DNA of 41,700 nucleotides from a virus: UHGV virus genome UHGV-0188329; one strand, 5' to 3'. The notes below the pieces were generated by a model. The model was given only the letters and a program-made list of their open reading frames with translations. It made no database searches and was not told the DNA's origin. The stretch's first letter is position 1; every line of letters begins with the position of its first letter. Below, piece after piece: positions 2,512-40,527 of this stretch. A program made the translations under genes and the position numbers.

Positions 2512-3400
2512 CCTCCAGTTTCGCTTTGCATTCTATGTAAATGGCTTGTACGTTCTGCTGCAATTTCATTCCAGATGTCAGGCGATATGCTTCTGCAAAA
2601 TATCGCTTCAAATCATCCATCTTTTCTGCCTGAGCCATTTCATCACAAAGAAGTTGTGCTTTATCCGTTATTTCCTGCTGGCGTTTCCGTTCATCTTCGC
2701 GGATATCTTCCTCTGATTTGTACGGCATAACTGGTTCAGTCCATACACCTTCTTCTTCGTTTAGTACGTGAATAGCACTATCAAGACGTGATGCCTTAGG
2801 CCAATACTTGCTTGCACGCTTTACGACCGTCTTTCGCGCCATCTCATTCCAGTGATTTACCCATGGCCCTTTATCGCTGAATGCCGCCTTGCTTGTTTTC
2901 CTTACAGCCTCAATTTCAGCCAGACTCATCTCTTCCGTTAGATAATCACCTGCTGGCGTCTTAACTGTGCAGTAAACGCCAACGATATCACCACGATCAC
3001 CGAAGGCGTTGTATTTATGGGTTGGTGCTTTATCAAGCCCGTTTGACTCATAGGTATCGTTAGCATGAACAAGTTTTGCCTGACCCCATGAGATAACACC
3101 AGACTCCATTGCAATATGGAGCAATCCCATATAGCTGATATCAAGGCAAACCATGCCGTCGCGCGGAACCAGATAAGCCAGTTTGCTGGCCGGGTTTAAG
3201 GTGATGCCGATCGCCGCAACATTGATGATGGCGTTCTGTGCGCTGGTTGGATTTGCCAGTGCTGTTTTAGCCAGGTAATCATTTTTCTGGAAATACTGAA
3301 TTGCAAACTGGCTTTCCTTAGCCCATGTCACCGTCTGTTCAGTCAATGCTCCGCAGAATAACTGCTCCTGCTGTTTAACGAATTCAACGATATTGCTCAT
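2489..3400 (-). CDS. recT: RecT/Bet-family single-strand annealing recombinase
   Basis: 303 aa; RecT-family-like central region and acidic C-terminus; early-left recombination position. Confidence 0.75.
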   Translation of the reverse strand: MSNIVEFVKQQEQLFCGALTEQTVTWAKESQFAIQYFQKNDYLAKTALANPTSAQNAIINVAAIGITLNPASKLAYLVPRDGMVCLDISYMGLLHIAMESGVISWGQAKLVHANDTYESNGLDKAPTHKYNAFGDRGDIVGVYCTVKTPAGDYLTEEMSLAEIEAVRKTSKAAFSDKGPWVNHWNEMARKTVVKRASKYWPKASRLDSAIHVLNEEEGVWTEPVMPYKSEEDIREDERKRQQEITDKAQLLCDEMAQAEKMDDLKRYFAEAYRLTSGMKLQQNVQAIYIECKAKLEVASEQTI

Positions 3401-3708
3401 GCAGCTTCTCCATAAATATGTCTGCGTTTGAATATTGCGAAGGCATATTCAGCCTTAACTCTTTCGGTTATTGCATCCCAGAACCATTCAGCGGCTTTTT
3501 CCTGATAGTCACAGTCATCATCTTCCAGCCAGTCGATAGCGTCCTTAGTGTGTTCATCTGGCTTATATGAGCGAAGCATTTCGCTTATTGGGTCGCAACG
3601 TTTGCAGAGGCGATCAACTTCACTGTTGATTCGTTCGTAATCATCATCGGTAAAACTTGCGATGATTTGCGATATTTCACGCTTATCATTCAGAGTCAGA
3701 ATCATCAT
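3397..3708 (-). CDS. Hypothetical acidic early protein (103 aa)
   Basis: ORF whose stop overlaps the RecT-like start. Confidence 0.4.
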   Translation of the reverse strand: MMILTLNDKREISQIIASFTDDDYERINSEVDRLCKRCDPISEMLRSYKPDEHTKDAIDWLEDDDCDYQEKAAEWFWDAITERVKAEYAFAIFKRRHIYGEAA

Positions 3709-4758: not shown

Positions 4759-4956
4759 CTGGATTCTCCTGTCAGTTAGCTTTGGTGATTGGATGGCCGG
4801 CGCTGAACCCCGGCTTACTGGTTAGAGCGCCCGCACTACCAGTGACGCTGTCTTGAGGCGCAGATTGGTTACTGCTTGCCATGAGCGCTGTTTATACATT
4901 GGTCGAGCATCAGCCTGCTCATTCATCCAATCCCAAAGCCTTCTGCTTTGAATGCT

Positions 4957-4987
4957 GCCCTTCTTCAGGGCTTAATTTTTAAGAGCG
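4957..4987 (-). promoter_or_regulatory. nutL (boxA CGCTCTTAA plus boxB GCCCTGAAGAAGGGC)
   Basis: Exact lambda-type boxA and boxB hairpin read on the minus strand, between OL and N. Confidence 0.8.
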
Positions 4988-5030
4988 TCACCTTCATGGT
5001 GGTTAGTGCGTCCTGCTGATGGCTTAAAAT

Positions 5031-5112
5031 ATACCTACAGGTAAAACCGTTGTCTATACCTGCAGGTAAATAAAATTGGTGTGAGAGTTTACCTGTTTGA
5101 ATTTTCAGGTAA
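5031..5112. promoter_or_regulatory. Left operator/pL region: repeated TACCT-N2-AGGTA palindromes
   Basis: TACCTACAGGTA (5033-5044), TACCTGCAGGTA (5057-5068), plus TTTACCTG-N10-CAGGTAA (5088-5112); same motif recurs right of cI. Confidence 0.6.
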
Positions 5113-5132
5113 TTAATTTTTTGGATTGATAT

Positions 5133-5154
5133 AAAAAAGCCCGCTTTGCGGGCT
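5133..5154 (-). terminator. Intrinsic terminator ending the cI operon (tIMM-like)
   Basis: GCCCGC/GCGGGC stem with UUUG loop followed by U-run on minus strand, 12 nt after stop of the cI-coupled gene. Confidence 0.55.
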
Positions 5155-5165
5155 GAAAGGAGATG

Positions 5166-5480
5166 TCAGAAGCTATTTGGATTGCTTGGCCATTGCGGCA
5201 ATTTTGATTCTACCGGGGTGTGTTTGGGTTTGAGTCCGTTTAAGTAGTCAAGACGCTCAATGGCGCATTTATACATAGCAATCTGATCTGATGACATGTC
5301 GTCATATGACATGCCTTTGAACTTCTTAATTATCGTTTCTGCCTCATGTATAAGATTCTTCTTCCTCATGAGTTCAGCTGTATGCTTAGAGCTTACAGGA
5401 GATAACTTTGCCCATATGAAGCAGATGATTACAACAGCGACTACTATGCCGGGTATAAACATTTGCTGCTTTATCCTCAA
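5166..5480 (-). CDS. Small membrane protein co-transcribed with cI (rex-position cargo gene)
   Basis: ATGA overlap with cI stop; one N-terminal hydrophobic helix (FIPGIVVAVVIICFIWA); followed by own terminator; no recognised family. Confidence 0.5.
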   Translation of the reverse strand: MRIKQQMFIPGIVVAVVIICFIWAKLSPVSSKHTAELMRKKNLIHEAETIIKKFKGMSYDDMSSDQIAMYKCAIERLDYLNGLKPKHTPVESKLPQWPSNPNSF

Positions 5481-6163
5481 ACTTTTGGCAGATCGTCCTG
5501 GTCTACGTACCTGGTGTGTTTCACAATAGCTGAAACAAAATGCATTTTATCAACTTCTTCAACAGGAAGAGTGATTGGGCGGTGATCACTGTTTATGCTA
5601 CTAAACTGATAATCACCGTCTCTTGTTTTGTTCATGATCTTTATCATGTTGTGACCGTCTTTGGTCCTTACAAAGACTTCATCACCTGGATGTACTGGCG
5701 TATTTGGTTCAATAACAACATATTCTCCTGACTGAATCCTTGGCCACATGCTGTCACCCTTAACCTTCAGACCGTAAGCATCTTTATCGCCGCTGTAGAT
5801 GCTTAACCAACCGGATCTGAATTCAATCATATCCACTGAGCCATCAACTCCCAAAACGGCTTCACCAATTACCGGAACAAAACCCGCACGAACGTTACCC
5901 GCAAACTCAAGATGGTCCGTAGCTCCAGCTTTACCATCTGCAAGCATGTCCATCCATCCGCGTGGGAGATTAAAAGATTTTTCAATTAGTTCCATCATAT
6001 CGTCAGCAATGCGTTTTTTTCCGCTTTTTCCTTCCGGATACAGCATTCTGGAAACGTATGATGGTTCCCTTTCTATTCGACGAGCCAACTCTGAGGCCTT
6101 TCCATTACAGAATCGGTCTCTTATCTCTATCAGCCTTAGTCGTCTTTGTTCGTATTTATCCAT
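5477..6163 (-). CDS. cI: CI-type repressor (HTH plus LexA-like S24 autopeptidase domain), non-lambda immunity type
   Basis: 228 aa; C-terminal GDSMWP serine motif and downstream Lys typical of S24 peptidases; between OL and OR; divergent from cro-like gene. Confidence 0.8.
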   Translation of the reverse strand: MDKYEQRRLRLIEIRDRFCNGKASELARRIEREPSYVSRMLYPEGKSGKKRIADDMMELIEKSFNLPRGWMDMLADGKAGATDHLEFAGNVRAGFVPVIGEAVLGVDGSVDMIEFRSGWLSIYSGDKDAYGLKVKGDSMWPRIQSGEYVVIEPNTPVHPGDEVFVRTKDGHNMIKIMNKTRDGDYQFSSINSDHRPITLPVEEVDKMHFVSAIVKHTRYVDQDDLPKV

Positions 6164-11561: not shown

Positions 11562-11746
11562 ACGCCACAATTCAAACGATACCAGAGCTTCTTATCCAGA
11601 CACGAGGCAATCAGACCGAAGTGGCGAGGATGCTTTCCTGCGCAAGAGGAACAGTGCTCAAGTACAACCGAGACAGCAAAGGCGAGCGTCACGTAATAGT
11701 TAACGGCGTCCTGATGGTCAAACAGGGCAAGAGGGGTAGACCATGA
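11558..11746 (+). CDS. ninH: NinH-like protein (62 aa)
   Basis: GNQTEVARMLSCARGTVLKY motif resembles lambda NinH. Confidence 0.6.
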   Translation: MNATIQTIPELLIQTRGNQTEVARMLSCARGTVLKYNRDSKGERHVIVNGVLMVKQGKRGRP

Positions 11747-12366
11747 GACTCGAAAGTGTAGCTAAATTTCATTCGCCAAAAAGCCCGATGATGAGCGACT
11801 CACCACGGGCTACGGCTTCTGACTCTCTTTCCGGTACTGATGTGATGGCTGCTATGGGGATGGCGCAATCACAAGCCGGATTCGGAATGGCTGCATTCTG
11901 CGGTAAGCATGAACTCAGCCAGAACGACAAACAAAAGGCTATCAACTATCTGATGCAATTTGCACACAAGGTATCGGGGAAATACCGTGGTGTGGCAAAG
12001 CTCGAAGGAAATACTAAGGCAAAGGTACTGCAAGTGCTCGCAACATTCGCTTATGCGGATTATTGCCGTAGTGCCGCGACGCCGGGCGCAAGATGCAGAG
12101 ATTGTCACGGTACAGGCCGTGCGGTTGATATAGCAAAAACAGAGCAGTGGGGGAGAGTTGTTGAGAAAGAATGCGGAAGATGCAAAGGTGTCGGCTATTC
12201 AAGAATGCCAGCAAGCGCCGCATATCGCGCTGTGACGATGCTAATCCCAAACCTTACCCAACCCACCTGGTCACGCACTGTTAAGCCGCTGTATGACGCT
12301 CTGGTGGTGCAATGCCACAAAGAAGAGTCAATCGCAGACAACATTTTGAATGCGGTCACACGTTAG
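11743..12366 (+). CDS. Q: Late antiterminator Q (DLP12 QuuD / phage 82-like)
   Basis: 207 aa immediately upstream of a lambda-type pR'; Cys cluster CRDCHGTG ... CGRCKG; resembles DLP12 QuuD. Confidence 0.75.
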   Translation: MRLESVAKFHSPKSPMMSDSPRATASDSLSGTDVMAAMGMAQSQAGFGMAAFCGKHELSQNDKQKAINYLMQFAHKVSGKYRGVAKLEGNTKAKVLQVLATFAYADYCRSAATPGARCRDCHGTGRAVDIAKTEQWGRVVEKECGRCKGVGYSRMPASAAYRAVTMLIPNLTQPTWSRTVKPLYDALVVQCHKEESIADNILNAVTR

Positions 12367-12799: not shown

Positions 12800-13123
12800 A
12801 TGAAGATGCCAGAAAAACATGACCTGTTAGCCGCCATTCTCGCGGCAAAGGAACAAGGCATCGGGGCAATCCTTGCGTTTGCAATGGCGTACCTTCGCGG
12901 CAGATATAATGGCGGTGCGTTTACAAAAACAGTAATCGACGCAACGATGTGCGCCATTATCGCCTGGTTCATTCGTGACCTTCTCGACTTCGCCGGACTA
13001 AGTAGCAATCTCGCTTATATAACGAGCGTGTTCATCGGCTACATCGGTACTGACTCGATTGGTTCGCTTATCAAACGCTTCGCTGCTAAAAAAGCCGGAG
13101 TAGAAGATGGTGGAAATCAATAA
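12800..13123 (+). CDS. S: Holin S (lambda-type class I, dual-start MKM)
   Basis: Translation matches lambda S over essentially its whole length, including the Met1-Lys2-Met3 dual start. Confidence 0.9.
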
Positions 13124-13583
13124 TCAACGTAAGGCGTTCCTCGATATGCTGGCGTGGTCAGAGGGAACTGATAACGGACGGCAGAAAACCAGAAATCATG
13201 GTTATGACGTCATTGTAGGAGGAGAGCTATTCACTGATTACTCCGATCACCCTCGCAAACTTGTCACGCTAAACCCCAAACTCAAATCAACAGCAGCCGG
13301 ACGTTACCAGCTTCTTTCCCGTTGGTGGGATGCCTATCGTAAGCAGCTTGGCCTGAAAGACTTCTCTCCGAAAAGCCAGGACGCTGTTGCGCTGCAGCAG
13401 ATTAAGGAGCGTGGCGCTTTACCGATGATTGATCGCGGTGATATCCGTCAGGCTATCGACCGTTGCAGCAATATCTGGGCTTCACTGCCGGGTGCTGGTT
13501 ATGGTCAGTTCGAGCATAAGGCAGACAGCCTGATTGCAAAATTCAAAGAAGCAGGCGGAACGGTCAGAGAGATTGAGGTATGA
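13107..13583 (+). CDS. R: Endolysin R (lambda-type lytic transglycosylase)
   Basis: Translation matches lambda R (158 aa); overlaps S end. Confidence 0.9.
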
Positions 13584-14017
13584 GTAGAGTAACCGCGATT
13601 ATCTCCGCTCTGGTTATCTGCATCATCGTCTGCCTGTCATGGGCTGTTAATCATTACCGTGATAATGCAATCGCCTACAAAGAGCAGCGCGATAAAGCCA
13701 CATCCATCATCGCTGATATGCAGAAGCGGCAACATGATGTAGCAGAACTCGACGCCAGATACACAAAGGAGCTTGCTGATGCTAACGCGACTATCGAAAG
13801 TCTCCGTGCTGATGTTTCTGCTGGTCGTAAGCGCCTGCAAGTCGCCGCCACCTGTACAAAGTCAACGACCGGAGCCAGCAGCATGGGCGATGGAGAAAGC
13901 CCAAGACTTACAGCAGATGCTGAACTCAATTATTACCGTCTCCGAAGTGGAATCGACAAGATAACCGCGCAGGTTAACTATCTGCAGGAATACATCAGGA
14001 CGCAATGCCTGAAATGA
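13580..14017 (+). CDS. Rz: Spanin inner-membrane subunit Rz (i-spanin)
   Basis: N-terminal TM helix [19 protein letters not shown] matches lambda Rz; C-terminal half diverged. Confidence 0.8.
13773..13964 (+). CDS. Rz1: Spanin outer-membrane lipoprotein Rz1 (o-spanin), embedded in +1 frame of Rz
   Basis: Signal peptide with lipobox-like VVSAC followed by Pro-rich segment; nested in Rz as in lambda. Confidence 0.6.
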
Positions 14018-29264: not shown

Positions 29265-30329
29265 ATGTCTCTTAACTGGATGCGCCATTTTGAGCTGCAA
29301 CTGTTGGACCAGAACGGGCAGGGCGTTTCCCTGTCTGACTTTAAGGTCACGTTCCAGATCGAGTGGGCAGACACACGCTGGCCACGCGTGGCGAACGTGA
29401 AAATTTACAACCTTTCGACCGATACCACGAACAAGATACTTGGGCAGGAGTTTGCCAAAATTCGCATCATTGCCGGGTATGACGGTATAGTGCCGGATGT
29501 TGATGCGAGCCAGGTTGGTGTGTCCCGGGAGATTTCACCAGACCAGATAGGGCAGGTGAACGGTCAGAACTACGGCCTGATTTTTGACGGTGATATTCGC
29601 TTCACCGTCACCGGGAAGGACAACATTACGGATTCCTGGGTGTTGATTCAGGCCATTGGTGATCACGAAGCGTTCCTCTATGCGACCACCATCACCACGC
29701 TTGCCGCTGGCTATACCGTTGCGGATCTGCACCGGGCGACGATGCAGGATTTCAACGCGTTCGGCGTGACACAGGGCATTACCGGCGATTTTCCTGATAC
29801 CGTGTTTCCTCGTGGCCGCGCGATTTACTCATCCAGCCGCAACGTGATGGATAATATTGCTGCGCAGTGCAAAGCGACATGGCAACTGGTGGATGGTCAG
29901 GTCCAGATGGTGCCGGAGGATAAATATATTCACGAAGCCATTGTGTTGAATGCCAATACTGGCCTGATCGGTATGCCGCAACAGACAATGGGCGGCGGCG
30001 TAAACGTGCGGTGCCTGATAAACCCAAACATCCGCATTAATGGTCTTATCCAGCTCGATCAGGCTTCGGTGTACCGCGCCGCGCTCGGCAATAGCGAAAT
30101 CGCACAGTCGCCCGGTCGTATCACTGAAACGGAAGAGAACGGCAACCGCGCACTGACCGGCACAACGTCACAGGCTGCCAGCATTGCGACAGATGGCGTT
30201 TATATCGTCAAAGCTATCGACTATACTGGCGACACCAGAGGTCAGGCGTGGTACATGGATTTGATGTGTTTTGCGCGTGGCAGTCGTGATTTAGTTAATG
30301 CTGGTGCTATGCAAAAAACAAACTACTGA
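29265..30329 (+). CDS. Putative baseplate hub / late control D-like protein
   Basis: 354 aa in baseplate cluster. Confidence 0.45.
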   Translation: MSLNWMRHFELQLLDQNGQGVSLSDFKVTFQIEWADTRWPRVANVKIYNLSTDTTNKILGQEFAKIRIIAGYDGIVPDVDASQVGVSREISPDQIGQVNGQNYGLIFDGDIRFTVTGKDNITDSWVLIQAIGDHEAFLYATTITTLAAGYTVADLHRATMQDFNAFGVTQGITGDFPDTVFPRGRAIYSSSRNVMDNIAAQCKATWQLVDGQVQMVPEDKYIHEAIVLNANTGLIGMPQQTMGGGVNVRCLINPNIRINGLIQLDQASVYRAALGNSEIAQSPGRITETEENGNRALTGTTSQAASIATDGVYIVKAIDYTGDTRGQAWYMDLMCFARGSRDLVNAGAMQKTNY

Positions 30330-30339
30330 GGTACGGGAC

Positions 30340-30675
30340 GTGAAACTCGTAATTTTTATCATTGCAGCATTATTTTCTTTCCAAGCTATTGCTGATTCTC
30401 AGTGTGGTGATTTCAAAATCCATTGGGCTGATGATGGTTTCGCTCGCGTAAACGGAGCTAAACCTGAATCGCAAAAAGTGACATTTCTTAAAAATGACGG
30501 TGATTATAACAACGTCAAAATTGAATGGCGCTTAGCGACCAATCAACCAGGGCGATGGGTAGGAATGGAGTTTATTGGCCGTAATGGTAAAGCAATCCTG
30601 AATGCTCAGTGGCTGCAAGCCAGCATGGATTCGCCGCGTCAGTATGCAACATACGACTGCCGAAAAGTAAAATAG
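30340..30675 (+). CDS. Moron-encoded small secreted protein (about 111 aa precursor)
   Basis: GTG start with GAGG 9 nt upstream; Sec signal peptide MKLVIFIIAALFSFQAIA then DSQC; 2 Cys in mature part; AT-rich relative to flanking tail genes. Confidence 0.5.
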   Translation: MKLVIFIIAALFSFQAIADSQCGDFKIHWADDGFARVNGAKPESQKVTFLKNDGDYNNVKIEWRLATNQPGRWVGMEFIGRNGKAILNAQWLQASMDSPRQYATYDCRKVK

Positions 30676-30693
30676 CCCGCCAGATAGGCGGGC
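30664..30693 (-). terminator. Terminator hairpin between the convergent moron genes
   Basis: GCCCGCC/GGCGGGC stem with AGAUA loop; on minus strand followed by UAUUUUACUUUUCG, 5 nt after stop of the DUF4236 gene. Confidence 0.5.
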
Positions 30694-30698
30694 ATGCG

Positions 30699-30989
30699 TC
30701 AAAAATATTGAGCTTTAATTATAATAAACACAATAATTACGAACAGGATGTTTCTAATTATTTTTTGCTTATGAGTAAGTTGTTTTTTTTCTGTCGATTT
30801 CCCGGGAGAGTAAAGGTTAGTGGTATGCGACAGCCCCGTGCCGGGAAGGCCATTTGTCATCTTTACGCCTTTTTTTCCGATGTTAATGGTGGAACCTTTA
30901 CCACCAATTGAAGTGCTTACTCCGCTTTTACTAATGTTGATCGCGAGTCCGGGCGCAATCCGGATTCTTTTACGAAATCTAAATCCCAT
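30699..30989 (-). CDS. DUF4236-family protein with C-terminal transmembrane helix
   Basis: N-terminus MGFRFRKRIRIAPGLAINISKSGVSTSIGGKG matches DUF4236 signature; C-terminal IIRNILFVIIVFIIIKA helix; AGGAG SD 7 nt upstream; AT-rich. Confidence 0.6.
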   Translation of the reverse strand: MGFRFRKRIRIAPGLAINISKSGVSTSIGGKGSTINIGKKGVKMTNGLPGTGLSHTTNLYSPGKSTEKKQLTHKQKIIRNILFVIIVFIIIKAQYF

Positions 30990-31176
30990 TTGTTACTCCT
31001 GTAGTCAATAATGCGATGGTGCAGGTCCACTCTATGGCGGCTTCATGGCTGAAATTGATTTTCAATGCTTACTTGTTGCAAACATATCCTAATACACCTT
31101 GTGAATGTGTGCCATTGCAGCGGAAAAGCCTTACTTCACACTGATGTGGCTTAGTTACTAAGAGATAATTGATACC

Positions 31177-31201
31177 AAACCAGCTTCGGCTGGTTTTTTT
31201 A
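31177..31201 (+). terminator. Intrinsic terminator immediately upstream of the baseplate spike gene
   Basis: AAACCAGC/GCUGGUUU stem with UUCG tetraloop followed by UUUUU; no plus-strand ORF of 60 aa or more upstream within the moron. Confidence 0.55.
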
Positions 31202-31211
31202 TGGGGGTTTT

Positions 31212-31952
31212 ATGCCAATTCCAACTCAATCACAGATCGGCGGTGAGCAGCAGACCGCGCAGGCCATTGTCGATTCGGTGTCTACCCAGATGCGCGTAGC
31301 GATGCCCGGCATCATTCAGTCGTTCGATCCTGACACTGTTACCTGCACAGTAGAGGTAGCGCTTCGCGGTATTGTTGGCGATGGCTCCACCGAATTAAAA
31401 CCGCTGGTGGATGTGCCGGTTATCTTCCCGCGCGGCGGCGGTTGCACGCTGACCTTTCCGGTAAAAGAAGGCGACGAGTGCCTGCTGATCTTTGCCGACC
31501 GTTGCATCGATTTCTGGTGGCAGAGCGGCGGCGTTCAGGAGACCGTCGACCCGCGCCAGCATGACTTATCTGATGCGTTCGCCATCGTTGGCCCGCAGTC
31601 GCAAGCGCAGAAAATCAGCGGTATCAGTACCAGCGCCGCGCAGCTGCGAACCGATGATGGCTCGGCGTTCGTAGAGGTCGCAGCAGGGCATAACATCACC
31701 GTTAAAACGCCGGGCAAGCTTACGGCTACGGCTGAGGGTGGAACGACAATCACATCCCCGACTATCACGCTGAACGGCAACGTAACGATTAATGGCAATC
31801 TGTCTCAGGGAATGGGAGAAAGTGGTGGTACTGCGACGATGCTTGGGCCGGTTACGGTAACGAATGATGTGACAGCTTCAGGTATAAGTGTCGCCACGCA
31901 TAAACATGGCGGAGTTCAGGCAGGCGGGGGAACTACTGGAGGGCCGCAATAA
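31212..31952 (+). CDS. Baseplate central spike protein (gpV-like)
   Basis: 246 aa; Gly/Thr-rich C-terminal repeat region ending ATHKHGGVQAGGGTTGG typical of spike tips. Confidence 0.6.
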   Translation: MPIPTQSQIGGEQQTAQAIVDSVSTQMRVAMPGIIQSFDPDTVTCTVEVALRGIVGDGSTELKPLVDVPVIFPRGGGCTLTFPVKEGDECLLIFADRCIDFWWQSGGVQETVDPRQHDLSDAFAIVGPQSQAQKISGISTSAAQLRTDDGSAFVEVAAGHNITVKTPGKLTATAEGGTTITSPTITLNGNVTINGNLSQGMGESGGTATMLGPVTVTNDVTASGISVATHKHGGVQAGGGTTGGPQ

Positions 31953-35556: not shown

Positions 35557-36600
35557 TTACCCTGTAAATATGCTAAGGAATGTTTTTTGAAATGATTTGT
35601 TTTTATTTTTAGCGTTAATTAATGCTACTATACTAACTTGCAGTTTTACCATTATTGTAGCAAGTGTGTAAGTAAGTACATAACTTATTAAATAATGACT
35701 ACCTATTTTTTGACACATTATGATAAATGGGATGTGCCATAAATAAATCCAAATGGAGTTTTGGGATATGAATGAAACAACCTGCCATAATCTTAAAACC
35801 TTAAGTAAAAGAACAGCTTTGTTTGAGAGCAGATAGACTACGAATATCATAAAGGTTGCATAGGACATGTAATATATCCCAGGTGGGTACTTGTCTGACT
35901 GAGTTGGATTAAAGGCACCCAAGGTAATAATGTAATATGCAGTCATGGCAGAAAATAATAATCCACAGATAATGGTTGGGGGTAATAATTCTTTATGATC
36001 AGTGCTTGCAATTTTATAACCAATGATGAAAGCAAGTGTATAAGATATAGAGTTTGATATGTATGTCCCCAAAAGTATATAAATGCTCAACTTGTCAATT
36101 CCATTATACAATGGAATTAACTGGCTATTAATTAATAAAAATGACGCGGATATTGTTAATATCGCTTTTAAATTAAGTGTGTATAGTTTTGGAGGAATGA
36201 AAGTGGCTATCACTGATATTATGAAAAAGAGTCTAATAACCCACACATAACCAAGCCCACTGGATAATGCGAATGATGTTATTATAATTGACTTATTGTA
36301 AGTAAAGTCTTTTATATTAAAAATAAACGAAATGATTTCATTTATTAAGAAAAATGCCGCGAAGAAAATCCAAGTTGGTAAAACTAAACGGCGAAATCGA
36401 GAATTAATATATTTTATTCTGTTGCTATGGCGATGTTCGGTTACACAAAAGGACATCCCCATAACCATAAACATTAAAGGAACATCAAAGTTTCGCAGTT
36501 GAGCTAGCCATAAAGGAGGCTGGACATGGGCTAGAATGATTAGAGAAAGCCCGAGAAATCTTAAAAAATCTATTTTATCAATACGCATGACTTCGTCCAT
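35557..36600 (-). CDS. Acyltransferase family 3 membrane protein (O-antigen acetylase Oac-like, lysogenic conversion candidate)
   Basis: 347 aa, multiple hydrophobic helices; N-terminal IDFLRFLGLSLIILAHV typical of acyltransferase-3; AT-rich; located between tail fibre genes and int. Confidence 0.7.
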   Translation of the reverse strand: MDEVMRIDKIDFLRFLGLSLIILAHVQPPLWLAQLRNFDVPLMFMVMGMSFCVTEHRHSNRIKYINSRFRRLVLPTWIFFAAFFLINEIISFIFNIKDFTYNKSIIITSFALSSGLGYVWVIRLFFIISVIATFIPPKLYTLNLKAILTISASFLLINSQLIPLYNGIDKLSIYILLGTYISNSISYTLAFIIGYKIASTDHKELLPPTIICGLLFSAMTAYYIITLGAFNPTQSDKYPPGIYYMSYATFMIFVVYLLSNKAVLLLKVLRLWQVVSFISQNSIWIYLWHIPFIIMCQKIGSHYLISYVLTYTLATIMVKLQVSIVALINAKNKNKSFQKTFLSIFTG

Positions 36601-37076: not shown

Positions 37077-38270
37077 TCATGTGACGTTACCGTCTATCCA
37101 GTCCGCCCACCATTGCATCATTTCTCTGCGCTTATCGAGATACTGAGCATGATTGTAAATTCCACGCACAGATCCGCCGTTGGCATGTGCCAGTTGCACT
37201 TCAATGGCGTCGGCAGGCCATTCGTGCTCGTTCATAATCGTGCTGAATTCATGCCTGAATCCGTGACCGCTTTCCAGACCTTCATAGCCGATTTGTTTGA
37301 TCACAAGCAATACCGCGTTCTCGCAGATTGGCTTCTTCTTATCGTTGCGCCCGGCAAAAACAAACTCTGAGACTGGTTTAGTGATGGAGCTTAGCGTAGT
37401 GAGAAGCTCAACCACCTGGTCTGACATAGGAACAACATGAATTTTGCGTCCCTTCATCACATTGGCGTCGATGGTGATAATCCTGTTTTCAAAATCGACG
37501 TTCTTCCATAGCATGGAACGAAGCTCTTTTGTTCTGAGGGCTGTGTAGCGTAAAACTTTGGTCGCAATGAGCGATACGATACTTCCTGAAAATGTTGCAA
37601 GTGCTTTGTTGAATTCCGGGATCTGGTCTGCAGGAAGAAACGGGAAGTTCTTCTTGCGGTATCCCTTCATGGCGTCAGCAAGGTCAGGTGACGGGTTATA
37701 TTTAGCCCTTCCGGTGACAATAGCGTAACGGAAAACCTCGCCGCATCTTCTGCGTGCTTTGTTGGCTCGCTCCATTGCGCCGCGATCTTCAAATCTGCGG
37801 ATTACTTCCAGCAGTTTCATCGGCTCAATATCCTGAATTTCAAGGCCGCCGATGATAGGTAAAATGTCGTCATCAAACATCTTTGCAAGTTCATTTGCAT
37901 AGCCTACTGACCAGACTTGCTTCTTGTGCTCGTACCATTCCTTGTAAATGGCGCTAAAGGAATTGTTGTTAGACGAAGCCTTTTTCGCCTTTACCGGATC
38001 GATGCCAACCGAGATGTCTTTCCTCGCAGTCCATGCTTTATCCCTTGCCTCCTGCAAAGTCATAAGCGGATATTTTCCTACGGTCAGTATTTTTTCCTTA
38101 CCGTCAATCTTGTAGCGAAGCTGCCATACCTTTTTCCCGGATACAGGGACATAAAGGTACAGGCCATTACCATCGAGAAGGCGATATGGTTTTTCTTTCG
38201 GCTTTGCTGCTTCAATCTGCTTAACGGTGAGCATGGGTAAAAATCCGGTGGGTAAAATTATTTTATCCAC
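37077..38270 (-). CDS. int: Tyrosine integrase (P4-like, tRNA-associated)
   Basis: N-terminal LTVKQIEAAKPKEKPYRLLDGNGLYLYV arm-binding-like segment; C-terminal GHGFRHEF ... Y catalytic motifs; adjacent to tRNA 3' end; alternative ATG start near 38234. Confidence 0.85.
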   Translation of the reverse strand: MDKIILPTGFLPMLTVKQIEAAKPKEKPYRLLDGNGLYLYVPVSGKKVWQLRYKIDGKEKILTVGKYPLMTLQEARDKAWTARKDISVGIDPVKAKKASSNNNSFSAIYKEWYEHKKQVWSVGYANELAKMFDDDILPIIGGLEIQDIEPMKLLEVIRRFEDRGAMERANKARRRCGEVFRYAIVTGRAKYNPSPDLADAMKGYRKKNFPFLPADQIPEFNKALATFSGSIVSLIATKVLRYTALRTKELRSMLWKNVDFENRIITIDANVMKGRKIHVVPMSDQVVELLTTLSSITKPVSEFVFAGRNDKKKPICENAVLLVIKQIGYEGLESGHGFRHEFSTIMNEHEWPADAIEVQLAHANGGSVRGIYNHAQYLDKRREMMQWWADWIDGNVT

Positions 38271-38395: not shown

Positions 38396-38470
38396 TGGTG
38401 TCCCCTGCAGGAATCGAACCTGCAATTAGCCCTTAGGAGGGGCTCGTTATATCCATTTAACTAAGAGGAC
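38396..38470 (-). tRNA. argW: tRNA-Arg (anticodon CCU), argW-type; prophage integration target
   Basis: Reverse complement reads GTCCTCTTAGTTAAATGGATATAACGAGCCCCTCCTAAGGGCTAATTGCAGGTTCGATTCCTGCAGGGGACACCA with T-loop GTTCGATTC, anticodon loop CUCCUAA and 3' CCA. Confidence 0.85.
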
Positions 38471-38545: not shown

Positions 38546-39478
38546 TTATGCCGGGTTTTTATAATTTTTCTTAATGTTTTCCGCACGTTCTGCTTTTTGG
38601 CGTGCTTCTGCTTTACGCTTATTGCTCATGTCGTTACGAATCTGTGCATGACTCATTAACGCGAAGATAAAGGTGCCGCCGCAGATGTTCCCCGCTAAAG
38701 TAGGTAGTGCGAAGGGCCAGATGAAATCGCTCCAGTGCAGCGTACCGTTAAACACCAGATAGAGGATTTCAACAGAACCGACCACGATATGGGTGGTGTC
38801 ACCCAGGGCAATAAGCCAGGTCATCAATATAATCACCACAATCTTTGCCGCACCCGCTGCAGGAAACATCCAAACCATAGTGGCGATCAGCCAGCCGGAA
38901 ATGATCGCGTTGGCAAACATCTCGCTGGGGGTGTTCTTCATCACATCCATGCCGATTTTGACAAATGCATCGCGAGTTTCTTCATTGAAGATAGGCATAT
39001 ATTCAAATGCCCACGCCGCAATACCTGTCCCGAGAATATTACCCAGCAGCACGACGCCCCATAACCGTATAAGTAAGCCGACGTTGCTCATTGTCGGTTT
39101 TTGCATGACGGGTAGTACCGCAGTCACGGTATTTTCGGTAAATAATTGCTGGCGGGCCATAATGACGATAATAAAACCAAAGGTATAACCGAGATTCTCC
39201 AGCAAGAAGCTGCCCGGCACACCTTCCAGTTCGACATGAAATATCCCTTTTGCCAGTAACGAAGCGCCCATCGACAGACCCGCCGCAATGGCTGACCACA
39301 GTAGCGCCATTGCGTCGCGTTCCAGCTCTTTTTCACCATCCTGGCGGATATGCTCATGAATTGCCATCGCCCGGGAGGGGAGTCGGTCTTCATCTATTTC
39401 TATTTTTTTGCCGCGCTCTTTTTCTTCGCTCTCAACTTCAATTTCGTCGCTGTGTTGATCAATTTTGTCGTTGTCCAT
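38546..39478 (-). CDS. yfdC: Formate/nitrite transporter family inner membrane protein (YfdC-like)
   Basis: 310 aa polytopic membrane protein; position next to argW and mlaA matches the E. coli K-12 arrangement. Confidence 0.75.
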   Translation of the reverse strand: MDNDKIDQHSDEIEVESEEKERGKKIEIDEDRLPSRAMAIHEHIRQDGEKELERDAMALLWSAIAAGLSMGASLLAKGIFHVELEGVPGSFLLENLGYTFGFIIVIMARQQLFTENTVTAVLPVMQKPTMSNVGLLIRLWGVVLLGNILGTGIAAWAFEYMPIFNEETRDAFVKIGMDVMKNTPSEMFANAIISGWLIATMVWMFPAAGAAKIVVIILMTWLIALGDTTHIVVGSVEILYLVFNGTLHWSDFIWPFALPTLAGNICGGTFIFALMSHAQIRNDMSNKRKAEARQKAERAENIKKNYKNPA

Positions 39479-39771
39479 GGTCTCTTCTCTTGAATTAGCA
39501 CGTATAGCTAAAGCGTAGCGGCTTTTTTGCTCGCAACTGACGGGAGTTACTCTGAAAATGTAGAAAAGGCTGCGTTTGCCTTTTTCTGTTTCTATAGAAT
39601 CAAGTAGCCTACAGGGCGGCGATTACCAGGCTATGATCAAATCAGCAAATCAGGGCGTCTGGACATCAGTTGACGTGCTGTTACAATCGCCCACACCTAA
39701 ACAGGCGGATACGGTATCGTTCCGTCATGGATGGCAAACTGCATAAGCCATAAAAAAACAGGGAGACATTT

Positions 39772-40527
39772 ATGAAGCTTCGCCTGTCGGCGCTTGCTCT
39801 GGGAACTACGCTTCTGGTGGGGTGTGCGAGTTCCGGTACAGATCAGCAAGGGCGTTCTGACCCGTTAGAAGGGTTCAACCGCACCATGTACAACTTCAAC
39901 TTCAATGTATTAGACCCGTATATTGTTCGACCGGTCGCTGTCGCCTGGCGTGATTATGTTCCGCAACCGGCGCGTAACGGTTTGAGCAACTTTACCGGCA
40001 ACCTTGAAGAACCTGCGGTGATGGTTAACTACTTCTTGCAGGGCGACCCTTATCAGGGGATGGTCCACTTTACCCGCTTTTTCCTGAACACCATTTTGGG
40101 GATGGGCGGCTTTATTGATGTTGCAGGGATGGCGAACCCGAAACTGCAACGGACTGAACCTCACCGCTTCGGTAGTACGCTTGGTCATTATGGCGTGGGT
40201 TATGGGCCGTACGTTCAGTTACCATTCTACGGTAGCTTCACGCTGCGTGATGACGGTGGTGATATGGCGGATGGTCTTTACCCGGTTCTTTCCTGGTTGA
40301 CCTGGCCGATGTCTGTGGGTAAATGGACGCTTGAAGGGATCGAAACCCGCGCTCAGCTGCTGGATTCCGACGGTCTGCTGCGTCAGTCGTCCGATCCTTA
40401 TATTATGGTGCGCGAAGCGTACTTCCAGCGTCATGATTTCATCGCTAATGGCGGCGAACTCAAACCGCAGGAAAATCCGAACGCGCAAGCGATTCAGGAT
40501 GATTTAAAAGATATCGATTCTGAATAA
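39772..40527 (+). CDS. mlaA: Outer membrane lipoprotein MlaA (VacJ)
   Basis: 251 aa; lipoprotein signal MKLRLSALALGTTLLVGC; translation matches MlaA/VacJ. Confidence 0.9.
   Translation: MKLRLSALALGTTLLVGCASSGTDQQGRSDPLEGFNRTMYNFNFNVLDPYIVRPVAVAWRDYVPQPARNGLSNFTGNLEEPAVMVNYFLQGDPYQGMVHFTRFFLNTILGMGGFIDVAGMANPKLQRTEPHRFGSTLGHYGVGYGPYVQLPFYGSFTLRDDGGDMADGLYPVLSWLTWPMSVGKWTLEGIETRAQLLDSDGLLRQSSDPYIMVREAYFQRHDFIANGGELKPQENPNAQAIQDDLKDIDSE

Follow-up and report, generated by a model that had tools for sequence, protein, structure and literature searches.

A DUF4236 gene carried as an inverted, exchangeable cassette in the tail module of an Escherichia coli prophage: a predicted inner-membrane protein with a possible role in entry exclusion

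Why should a prophage carry, in the midst of its tail genes and against their direction, a small gene for a predicted membrane protein? The question is raised by the virus genome UHGV-0188329, analysed here as one window (the whole stretch of 41,700 nucleotides), which is an integrated lambdoid/E217-like prophage of Escherichia coli. The gene in question is a minus-strand coding sequence (CDS) at 30699..30989, with an ATG start and its stop codon at 30699-30701, that encodes a 96-residue protein of the DUF4236 family. All late genes of the prophage lie on the plus strand, and the DUF4236 gene alone opposes them in the tail block. The locus is a moron, self-contained, horizontally exchanged and inverted between the baseplate hub and phrog_3443 genes on one side and the central spike gene on the other. 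Very probably this moron encodes a tail-anchored inner-membrane protein that is dispensable for virion formation and holds a polycationic DUF4236 sheet in the cytoplasm.

The preliminary description of the sequence had regarded the gene as prophage cargo transcribed opposite to the late operon, and comparison with related prophages bears this out. Homology with relatives lacking the segment stops at 30660-30673 and restarts at 31189-31194 (blastn), a loss of homology that delimits an exchangeable cassette of ~513-515 bp at ~30674..31188. The hub-to-W region occurs in 53 of 5,426 complete E. coli genomes, with the DUF4236 segment present in 19 of these 53 and missing from 34, and five sequenced relatives hold unrelated small genes in the slot. 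Such cargos include a 116-residue protein, encoded on the minus strand and hydrophobic in its central segment (strain E89), a 106-residue protein with a signal peptide (strain 81), a 181-residue Cys-rich protein (LR-33) and a 128-residue protein with a signal peptide (Citrobacter phage Omnitron). Strain E89 (NZ_CP121157.1) has two prophages of this tail family, at ~2.836-2.840 Mb and ~3.286 Mb, one with the 116-residue alternative cargo and the other with the DUF4236 cassette. The base composition of the cassette is foreign to its surroundings, with a GC content of 41.5% (38.8% in the CDS, and 38% at third codon positions, GC3) as against 53-57% (GC3 ~60%) in the hub, spike, W and J genes. In the prophages PEC422, TOK-001 and S1 identity is 98-99.8% over the cassette but falls to 92-94% over the wider 3-kb region, a pattern that fits recent exchange or stronger constraint alike. 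The gene also ends in an intrinsic terminator of its own (30665..30693, minus strand; scan and folding), a stem-loop at 30675-30693 with a T-rich tail, in which GCCCGCC-TATCT-GGCGGGC forms a 7-bp all-G:C stem three bases 3' of the stop codon. This structure folds at -16.7 kcal/mol (z -3.65); none of 200 shuffled sequences was equally stable. It directly adjoins the stop codon of phrog_3443, the convergent gene. Replacement of the DNA between adjacent genes, deviant base composition and an own terminator are among the marks of a moron (PMC3594210), to which an own promoter and expression from the repressed prophage also belong, and these three are found here. The same hub|spike slot is home to orthologous cassettes in prophages of Hafnia paralvei, in Klebsiella phage GZ7 and its relatives, and in a deeply diverged lineage whose hub and spike lie beyond phmmer linkage; the cassettes of these other lineages are also inverted, each with a terminator of different sequence, which in the Klebsiella and Hafnia cassettes stands at the same place. 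Facultative presence and inverted orientation together argue that the DUF4236 protein is not a virion component, which is in line with the earlier proposal that its function lies outside the virion, and its homologues are not consistently structural proteins.

The same description had also treated the gene as autonomous, with a strong ribosome-binding site. A Shine-Dalgarno sequence, AGGAG, does lie 6 nt 5' of the ATG at 30996..31000 (minus strand), and TTGACTACAGGAG at this site is kept in Klebsiella phage GZ7, as the cassette alignment indicates. As to autonomy, the claim stands for the terminator but not for the promoter, since none rises above background. The 187-nt region at 30990..31176 (minus strand), comprising the 5' untranslated region (UTR) and presumed promoter and bearing a 33-nt deletion in allele L020, was searched by consensus and position weight matrix (PWM) scans, and the consensus sigma-70 scan of the minus strand upstream of the gene found no promoter. 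A sigma-54-like candidate, judged by eye, was rejected for its spacing of GG-N8-GC instead of N10.

The gene product already has a RefSeq annotation and is an ordinary representative of a family that is known but uncharacterised. Its translation (minus strand, 96 residues) is MGFRFRKRIRIAPGLAINISKSGVSTSIGGKGSTINIGKKGVKMTNGLPGTGLSHTTNLYSPGKSTEKKQLTHKQKIIRNILFVIIVFIIIKAQYF, with a computed mass of 10.5 kDa and a pI of 11.6, and it is WP_000506880.1, the accession under which the same protein sequence is annotated in allele L019. Alleles differ at 21.5 synonymous versus 4.5 non-synonymous positions, the latter mostly within residues 61-76, and the resulting ratio of non-synonymous to synonymous substitution rates (dN/dS) of ~0.05 signifies strong purifying selection, so that the open reading frame (ORF), which is also supported by the ORF list, Pfam and RefSeq identity, may be considered real and constrained. 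A plus-strand ORF at 30609-30911 was rejected as the true gene, as it matches no family and the minus-strand frame is the one under strong purifying selection. Membership in DUF4236, previously suggested by the N-terminal signature alone, was confirmed by a profile search with Pfam PF14020, which matches residues 3-55 (model positions 1-54 of 55) at 73.6 bits and E 1.8e-20, well above the curated gathering cut-off of 27 bits. The family-invariant residues P13, G14, N18, K21, G29, G32, P49, G50 and G52 of an 84-sequence alignment are all present in the window protein. Nine PHROG families are matched as well, always at their N-termini, and every one of them is of unknown function.

Three parts can be distinguished in the protein. 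Residues 1-60 (30810..30989, minus strand) form the DUF4236 domain, a six-strand antiparallel beta-meander by its AlphaFold2 (AF2) model, charge and conservation; the model has a mean predicted local distance difference test (pLDDT) score of 82 and places strands at 6-12, 15-20, 23-30, 33-38, 41-48 and 53-60. The domain holds 10 K/R residues and zero D/E, for a net charge of ~+10. Hydrophobic and polar positions alternate strictly along its strands, which would give the sheet one fully hydrophobic face and hence require self-association, docking to a partner or lying on a membrane. Residues 61-76 (30762..30809, minus strand), SPGKSTEKKQLTHKQK, constitute a polar basic linker that is the least conserved part by homologue alignment and allele comparison and has the lowest block pLDDT of the AF2 model, 62. 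Residues 77-96 (30702..30761, minus strand), IIRNILFVIIVFIIIKAQYF, are the C-terminal hydrophobic helix that the preliminary description had recognised; from hydropathy (Kyte-Doolittle mean of 3.05 over 15 residues), AF2 (helix at 73-95, block pLDDT 88-95) and comparison with relatives it is predicted to be an inner-membrane tail anchor. No signal peptide is present.

The anchor had been taken for a particular fusion of this protein, but a transmembrane (TM) segment proves to be the norm of the family, as a TM-like segment follows the domain in 236 of 257 retrieved relatives (92%), 15-35 residues downstream of it. The family is large: a profile search returned 12,922 clusters at 50% identity, 8,924 of them at E <= 1e-10, matches are found in 2,768 of 72,556 PLSDB plasmids (3.8%), and hundreds of viral contigs encode the domain. 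In the 150 best library matches the domain starts, with few exceptions, at residue 1. Its charge is likewise a family trait, with a mean net charge of +9.5 +/- 1.3 over 58 residues, at most one acidic residue in 91% of domains, and R4, K7, R10 and K21 conserved in 98-100%. Among 55 longer members, the part beyond the TM segment contains SH3b (SH3_3) in 20 and Excalibur in 3, and fusions to Mrr_cat, FtsK-gamma and WYL domains occur rarely. The positive-inside rule, the lack of a signal peptide and the extracytoplasmic SH3b and Excalibur domains that follow the TM segment in relatives together suggest that the inner-membrane protein is tail-anchored and exposes its DUF4236 domain to the cytoplasm (N-in, C-out). 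The other short DUF4236 proteins (the annotated WP_000506880.1 and members of PHROGs 18347, 27590 and 17982) carry the same domain in the same N-terminal position, mostly with the same order of domain, linker and TM segment; no difference sets the window protein apart from them, and all are annotated as of unknown function. A natural tandem is provided by the metagenomic protein P0121 (178 residues), in which two DUF4236 domains precede a single TM helix, which hints that the domains may work in pairs; an AF2 model of P0121 from a single sequence was uninformative as to domain packing (pLDDT 54). A search of the PDB with the family profile gave chance matches only (E >= 0.23), and Foldseek against BFVD retrieved DUF4236 proteins only. 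In the literature searched, DUF4236 is mentioned in a single paper, and there in passing, with nothing on function; a query for 'PF14020' returned Plasmodium gene identifiers only, and articles on phiCD38-2 are silent on its DUF4236 protein, gp15.

The relatives of the gene reside in several kinds of setting. In temperate phages of Proteobacteria, DUF4236 genes lie in the block from tape measure to tail tip across several tail types: in the lambda-like slot between tape measure (H) and M, beside another small TM protein; in the lambda-like K|I-J slot, as in Pseudomonas syringae and others; upstream of the tape measure by one or two genes, or between it and the tail chaperone; and, in Pasteurella phages, adjoining the baseplate hub. 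Within the first IMG/VR sample, 12 of 22 protein clusters have a homologue of the tape measure, hub or spike, or of J, K, L or M, no more than 3 kb away, and in several siphoviruses the DUF4236 gene is co-oriented with the tape-measure, hub and spike genes. In one locus of the lambda-like lineage (L043) a gene for a 130-residue protein with an N-terminal TM segment (4783-5175, minus strand) stands beside an inverted DUF4236 gene between tape measure and gpM, which suggests a two-gene cargo island. A second recurrent home is found in gut Firmicutes phages (Roseburia Shimadzu, Faecalibacterium Epona, Ruminococcus RG-TP1), where the order is repressor, DUF4236 with TM segment, integrase, often with overlapping stop and start codons. 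Among 80 further IMG/VR loci, counts that rest on only eight query proteins, ~36 have the integrase downstream and ~30 the repressor directly upstream, on the same strand; these loci span serine and tyrosine integrases and, by manual grouping, several lineages. Because these Firmicutes relatives sit in repressor-integrase operons, we infer that the window protein, too, is likely made by the lysogen and not as a part of the virion.

Beyond phages, the domain occurs in at least 5 phyla of species-representative genomes. On a Vibrio diabolicus chromosome (L016, 8001-8504) a DUF4236-TM-SH3b protein is encoded in an array of short, co-oriented and evenly spaced genes that looks like an integron, or superintegron; nearby cassettes encode a DUF4238 protein and a PLD-family nuclease. 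A plasmid or integrative and conjugative element (ICE) has a DUF4236 gene beside RadC and ParAB. In plasmid ter clusters a fixed, TM-less DUF4236 protein of 402-407 residues is encoded between an ATP-grasp/PRTase/HAD/StiP/HpcH module and terW (L113 6001-7209, pAPEC-O1-R; L114 6001-7224, pSC7-vir); its C-terminal 340 residues have no Pfam match, and the rows sampled suggest that this form makes up most of the 2,768 plasmid matches.

Taken together, these placements allow the tentative proposal that the protein, expressed by the lysogen, mediates superinfection or entry exclusion at the inner membrane. One ground for this proposal is the correspondence between the two recurrent homes of DUF4236 genes and the two canonical homes of phage exclusion genes, namely the repressor-integrase interval and morons beside tape-measure and tail-tip genes. 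Tethered to the membrane at the point where an incoming phage opens its channel, the polycationic sheet might interfere with the tape measure, with ejection proteins or with the DNA as it enters, and would thereby keep the genomes of superinfecting phages out of the cytoplasm, as HK97 gp15 does. Also in favour are the other settings in which DUF4236 is carried on mobile DNA, namely the integron-like array, the plasmid or ICE with RadC, and the plasmid ter clusters, to which phage inhibition is ascribed (PMC7824862). Superinfection exclusion (Sie) genes of Gram-positive temperate phages, including Lactococcus Sie2009 and Ltp, lie between integrase and repressor, and the Roseburia, Faecalibacterium and Ruminococcus DUF4236 genes share this position and strand logic and encode likewise membrane-associated products. 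This positional likeness holds for the Firmicutes relatives and not for the window gene, and other protein families are involved: Ltp of Streptococcus thermophilus TP-J34, a Sie gene product of a temperate phage (PMC4737114), is a lipoprotein that acts outside the membrane.

For the window gene itself, the closer parallel is HK97 gp15. This small protein of the inner membrane is the product of a moron that separates the tail chaperone gene from the tape-measure gene; its exclusion of an incoming phage depends on which tail tube or tape measure that phage has (PMC3594210, PMC4737114), and it belongs to the enterobacterial YebO family (PMC3594210, summarising Cumby et al. 2012). Both proteins are small and reside in the inner membrane (by prediction here), and both genes are morons of foreign base composition in a tail operon near tape-measure or tail-tip genes, with an own terminator and missing from close relatives; some DUF4236 genes even occupy exactly the chaperone|tape-measure slot of gp15. 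However, DUF4236 is pan-bacterial and has a folded beta-sheet domain with a C-terminal anchor, and exclusion has been demonstrated for gp15 and is only proposed here; no homology is claimed. Since DUF4236 is the sole Pfam family matched, the window protein is unlikely to belong to the gp15/YebO family. SNIPE, a membrane-bound DUF4041/GIY-YIG nuclease (PMC13190303), offers a functional analogy only: its inner-membrane anchor keeps a cytoplasmic domain of positive charge at the site of genome injection, where this domain contacts the tape measure and DNA. SNIPE has an N-terminal TM segment and a nuclease effector, whereas the window protein lacks a catalytic domain and is related to it in neither sequence nor fold.

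Several observations weigh against a role in exclusion. Tail-module slots are general hot-spots for morons, so that proximity to tape-measure, hub and spike genes may lack functional meaning, and the lineages in which that proximity recurs were sampled by similarity to the query and are hence not independent. The double carriage in strain E89 indicates that exclusion of like-tailed phages, if any, is not absolute. Virulent phages of Klebsiella and Brevundimonas also carry DUF4236, near nrdA. TM-less forms with other C-terminal domains exist, and DUF4236 may be merely a generic membrane- or polyanion-binding module. A defence role finds no echo in the databases searched, with no PADLOC-DB v2 defence model at E <= 0.1 and no NCBIfam match. 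A survey of the genes at +/-1 in species-representative genomes revealed no conserved partner (113 Pfam families among 150 neighbours), which in turn indicates that DUF4236 acts as a stand-alone gene and makes a multi-gene system unlikely. Lastly, expression in the lysogen would call for a promoter, and the PWM scan of nine orthologous upstream regions gave scores all within background, the best in the window being 6.8, or the 62nd percentile of a background derived from the window itself, although weak, activated or alternative-sigma promoters may escape such scans.

Other functions can be imagined for the same protein. It may be, although this appears unlikely, that the cationic sheet serves lysogenic conversion by altering envelope or membrane physiology for the benefit of the host and unrelated to exclusion, with effects such as tolerance of stress, colicins or xenobiotics or the organisation of lipid domains, as proposed for Ter-type systems. 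The fixation of a 402-residue DUF4236 protein in plasmid ter clusters, together with the 2,768 plasmid matches, would agree with such a function, as would the Oac-like surface-modifying gene of the same prophage, the secreted or membrane proteins that make up other cargos of the slot, and the varied chromosomal neighbours of DUF4236. The ter clusters form a membrane-associated system credited with phage inhibition (PMC7824862), and their DUF4236 protein (WP_000506887.1, pAPEC-O1-R) resembles that of the window in its N-terminal domain (E 1e-21) and its carriage on mobile elements. However, the ter-type protein is built differently, with no TM helix and a C-terminal region of 340 residues, and its gene is one fixed part of an operon of several genes. 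The window gene, by contrast, stands by itself in its cassette, encodes 96 residues, has baseplate genes as neighbours and shares the window with no ter genes. The 96-residue form is tied to no stress phenotype, and its recurrent placement in lysogeny modules and tail slots fits conflict between phages at least equally well. An effector of abortive infection, which would oligomerise upon infection, depolarise or permeabilise the inner membrane and kill the lysogen before phage release, is improbable. A small single-pass membrane protein might act in this manner, particularly as an amphipathic sheet with a hydrophobic face implies self-association or membrane contact; in integron cassettes and prophages the DUF4236 gene functions alone, and a long 5' UTR without an obvious constitutive promoter could mean tight control. 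Yet strands of 6-8 residues are too short to span a bilayer, neither a conserved sensor domain nor a partner gene accompanies the protein, PADLOC gave no match, and purifying selection and carriage in repressor-integrase operons suggest expression that is constitutive and non-toxic.

Two further possibilities assign the protein to the phage's own propagation. Acting as a counter-defence or establishment factor, it might assist an element entering a new cell, for instance by binding DNA or a host membrane protein and so shielding or steering the DNA that comes in; this is quite improbable, even if a polycationic domain is compatible with nucleic-acid binding and DUF4236 is present in virulent Klebsiella and Brevundimonas phages, beside RadC/ParB in a plasmid or ICE and in rare fusions with Mrr_cat, FtsK-gamma and WYL. 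In this prophage the window gene runs against the late operon and the early genes are distant from it, and the co-orientation of the Firmicutes copies with repressor and integrase points to a lysogenic rather than an early lytic transcript. Highly improbable is an accessory role in the phage's own tail or injection apparatus, for example by assisting the tape measure, hub or spike during assembly as a membrane receptor or chaperone, or in lysis timing, for example as an antiholin-like regulator. Only the repeated adjacency of DUF4236 genes to tape-measure, hub and spike genes, co-oriented in several siphoviruses, speaks in its favour, whereas 34 of 53 related E. coli regions do without the gene, five relatives fill the slot with unrelated genes, and the gene itself is inverted, with an own terminator and a foreign GC content. 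The holin/Rz cassette moreover lies ~17 kb away, the protein matches no holin family in Pfam or PHROG, and in Firmicutes phages the related genes belong to lysogeny modules. The function here put forward, albeit tentatively, is exclusion at the inner membrane.

The genes that flank the cassette belong to a contractile tail of the E217/phiTE type, comprising sheath, tube, SLT-domain tape measure, Dit, plug and hub, followed by further tail genes for spike V, W, J, DUF2612, fibre and fibre chaperone. On the left edge of a low-GC island, the E217 gp41-like baseplate hub gene (29265..30329, plus strand) matches Pfam PF22759 at E 4e-6 and 26.6 bits, just below the 27-bit cut-off, and its Hafnia homologue matches the same family. 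The island, 30340-31188, consists of the phrog_3443 gene and the DUF4236 cassette. The phrog_3443 gene (30340..30675, plus strand; PHROG E 2e-44; 42.6% GC) encodes a product of 111 residues with a signal peptide, read from the GTG start used by the Prokaryotic Genome Annotation Pipeline (PGAP) in L001; the mechanical ORF, from an ATG at 30298, runs over the last part of the hub gene, whereas RefSeq relatives start at the GTG equivalent to 30340, and the shorter form is the more plausible, yielding a canonical signal peptide. This gene was rejected as part of the exchangeable cargo, being present in every relative examined despite its low GC content, and may represent an older, fixed moron or a periplasm-exposed accessory. 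On the right follows the gene for the central spike, or baseplate assembly protein V (31212..31952, plus strand), identified by the Pfam spike N-terminal domain (E 9e-42) and an Apex motif. Just 5' of its ribosome-binding site, scan and folding located a plus-strand hairpin at 31177..31203, AAACCAGC-TTCG-GCTGGTTT followed by a T7 run, which at -11.9 kcal/mol (z -1.86) is weak by itself. An equivalent hairpin with another stem and loop (AACCCGC-CGCCGA-GCGGGTT) occurs in relatives with other cargo, including plus-strand cargo (L002 ~3490-3510, L003 ~3270-3290, L004 ~3485-3505). The hairpin is probably an insulator terminator associated with the slot that shields gpV from transcription arising within it; in lambdoid phages, Q-modified late transcription would read through such a hairpin.

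Elsewhere in the prophage lie the S24 repressor gene (5477-6163, minus strand), the Q antiterminator (11743-12366), an S-type holin (12800-13123) and Rz (13580-14017). An Acyl_transf_3 gene for an Oac-like O-antigen acyltransferase (35557-36600, minus strand), between the tail-fibre assembly gene and the integrase, constitutes a second, classical lysogenic-conversion locus of this prophage; in a related prophage of strain I3, gtrA, a family-2 glycosyltransferase gene and a glucosyltransferase gene replace it. The tyrosine integrase gene (37077-38270, minus strand) is followed by a tRNA-Arg(CCT) gene beside it (38396-38470), and an Rfam search over the whole window returned tRNA only. Host genes lie beyond the prophage end at 38546-40527, namely a formate/nitrite-transporter-family gene (taken as yfdC-like) and mlaA, so placed that the prophage end is what we take to be the argW attachment region of E. 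coli. The related prophage of strain I3 is integrated near dacD/sbmC.

What is new here is a comparative view of the family, covering its topology, its behaviour as a stand-alone cassette, where its genes are placed (lysogeny modules and tail slots) and its link to ter clusters. This view turns DUF4236 into a testable exclusion hypothesis. The window gene represents the minimal form of the family, a domain and an anchor, in a cleanly delimited cassette, and is therefore a convenient experimental entry point. Should it not exclude phages, it would be an ordinary moron of unknown function. Should it do so, a broad single-gene family would be added to the few proteins known to block injection, and a handle would be gained on the protection of the inner membrane by prophages, plasmids and ter clusters. 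That DUF4236 is the signature domain of a very large and unrecognised family of entry-exclusion proteins is doubtful; if true, a polycationic amphipathic sheet at the cytoplasmic face of the membrane would block or capture foreign DNA or the translocation machinery, DUF4236 exclusion would be in use among temperate and virulent phages, integron cassettes and conjugative elements alike, and the phage inhibition associated with plasmid ter clusters, long without an explanation, would be due in part to DUF4236.

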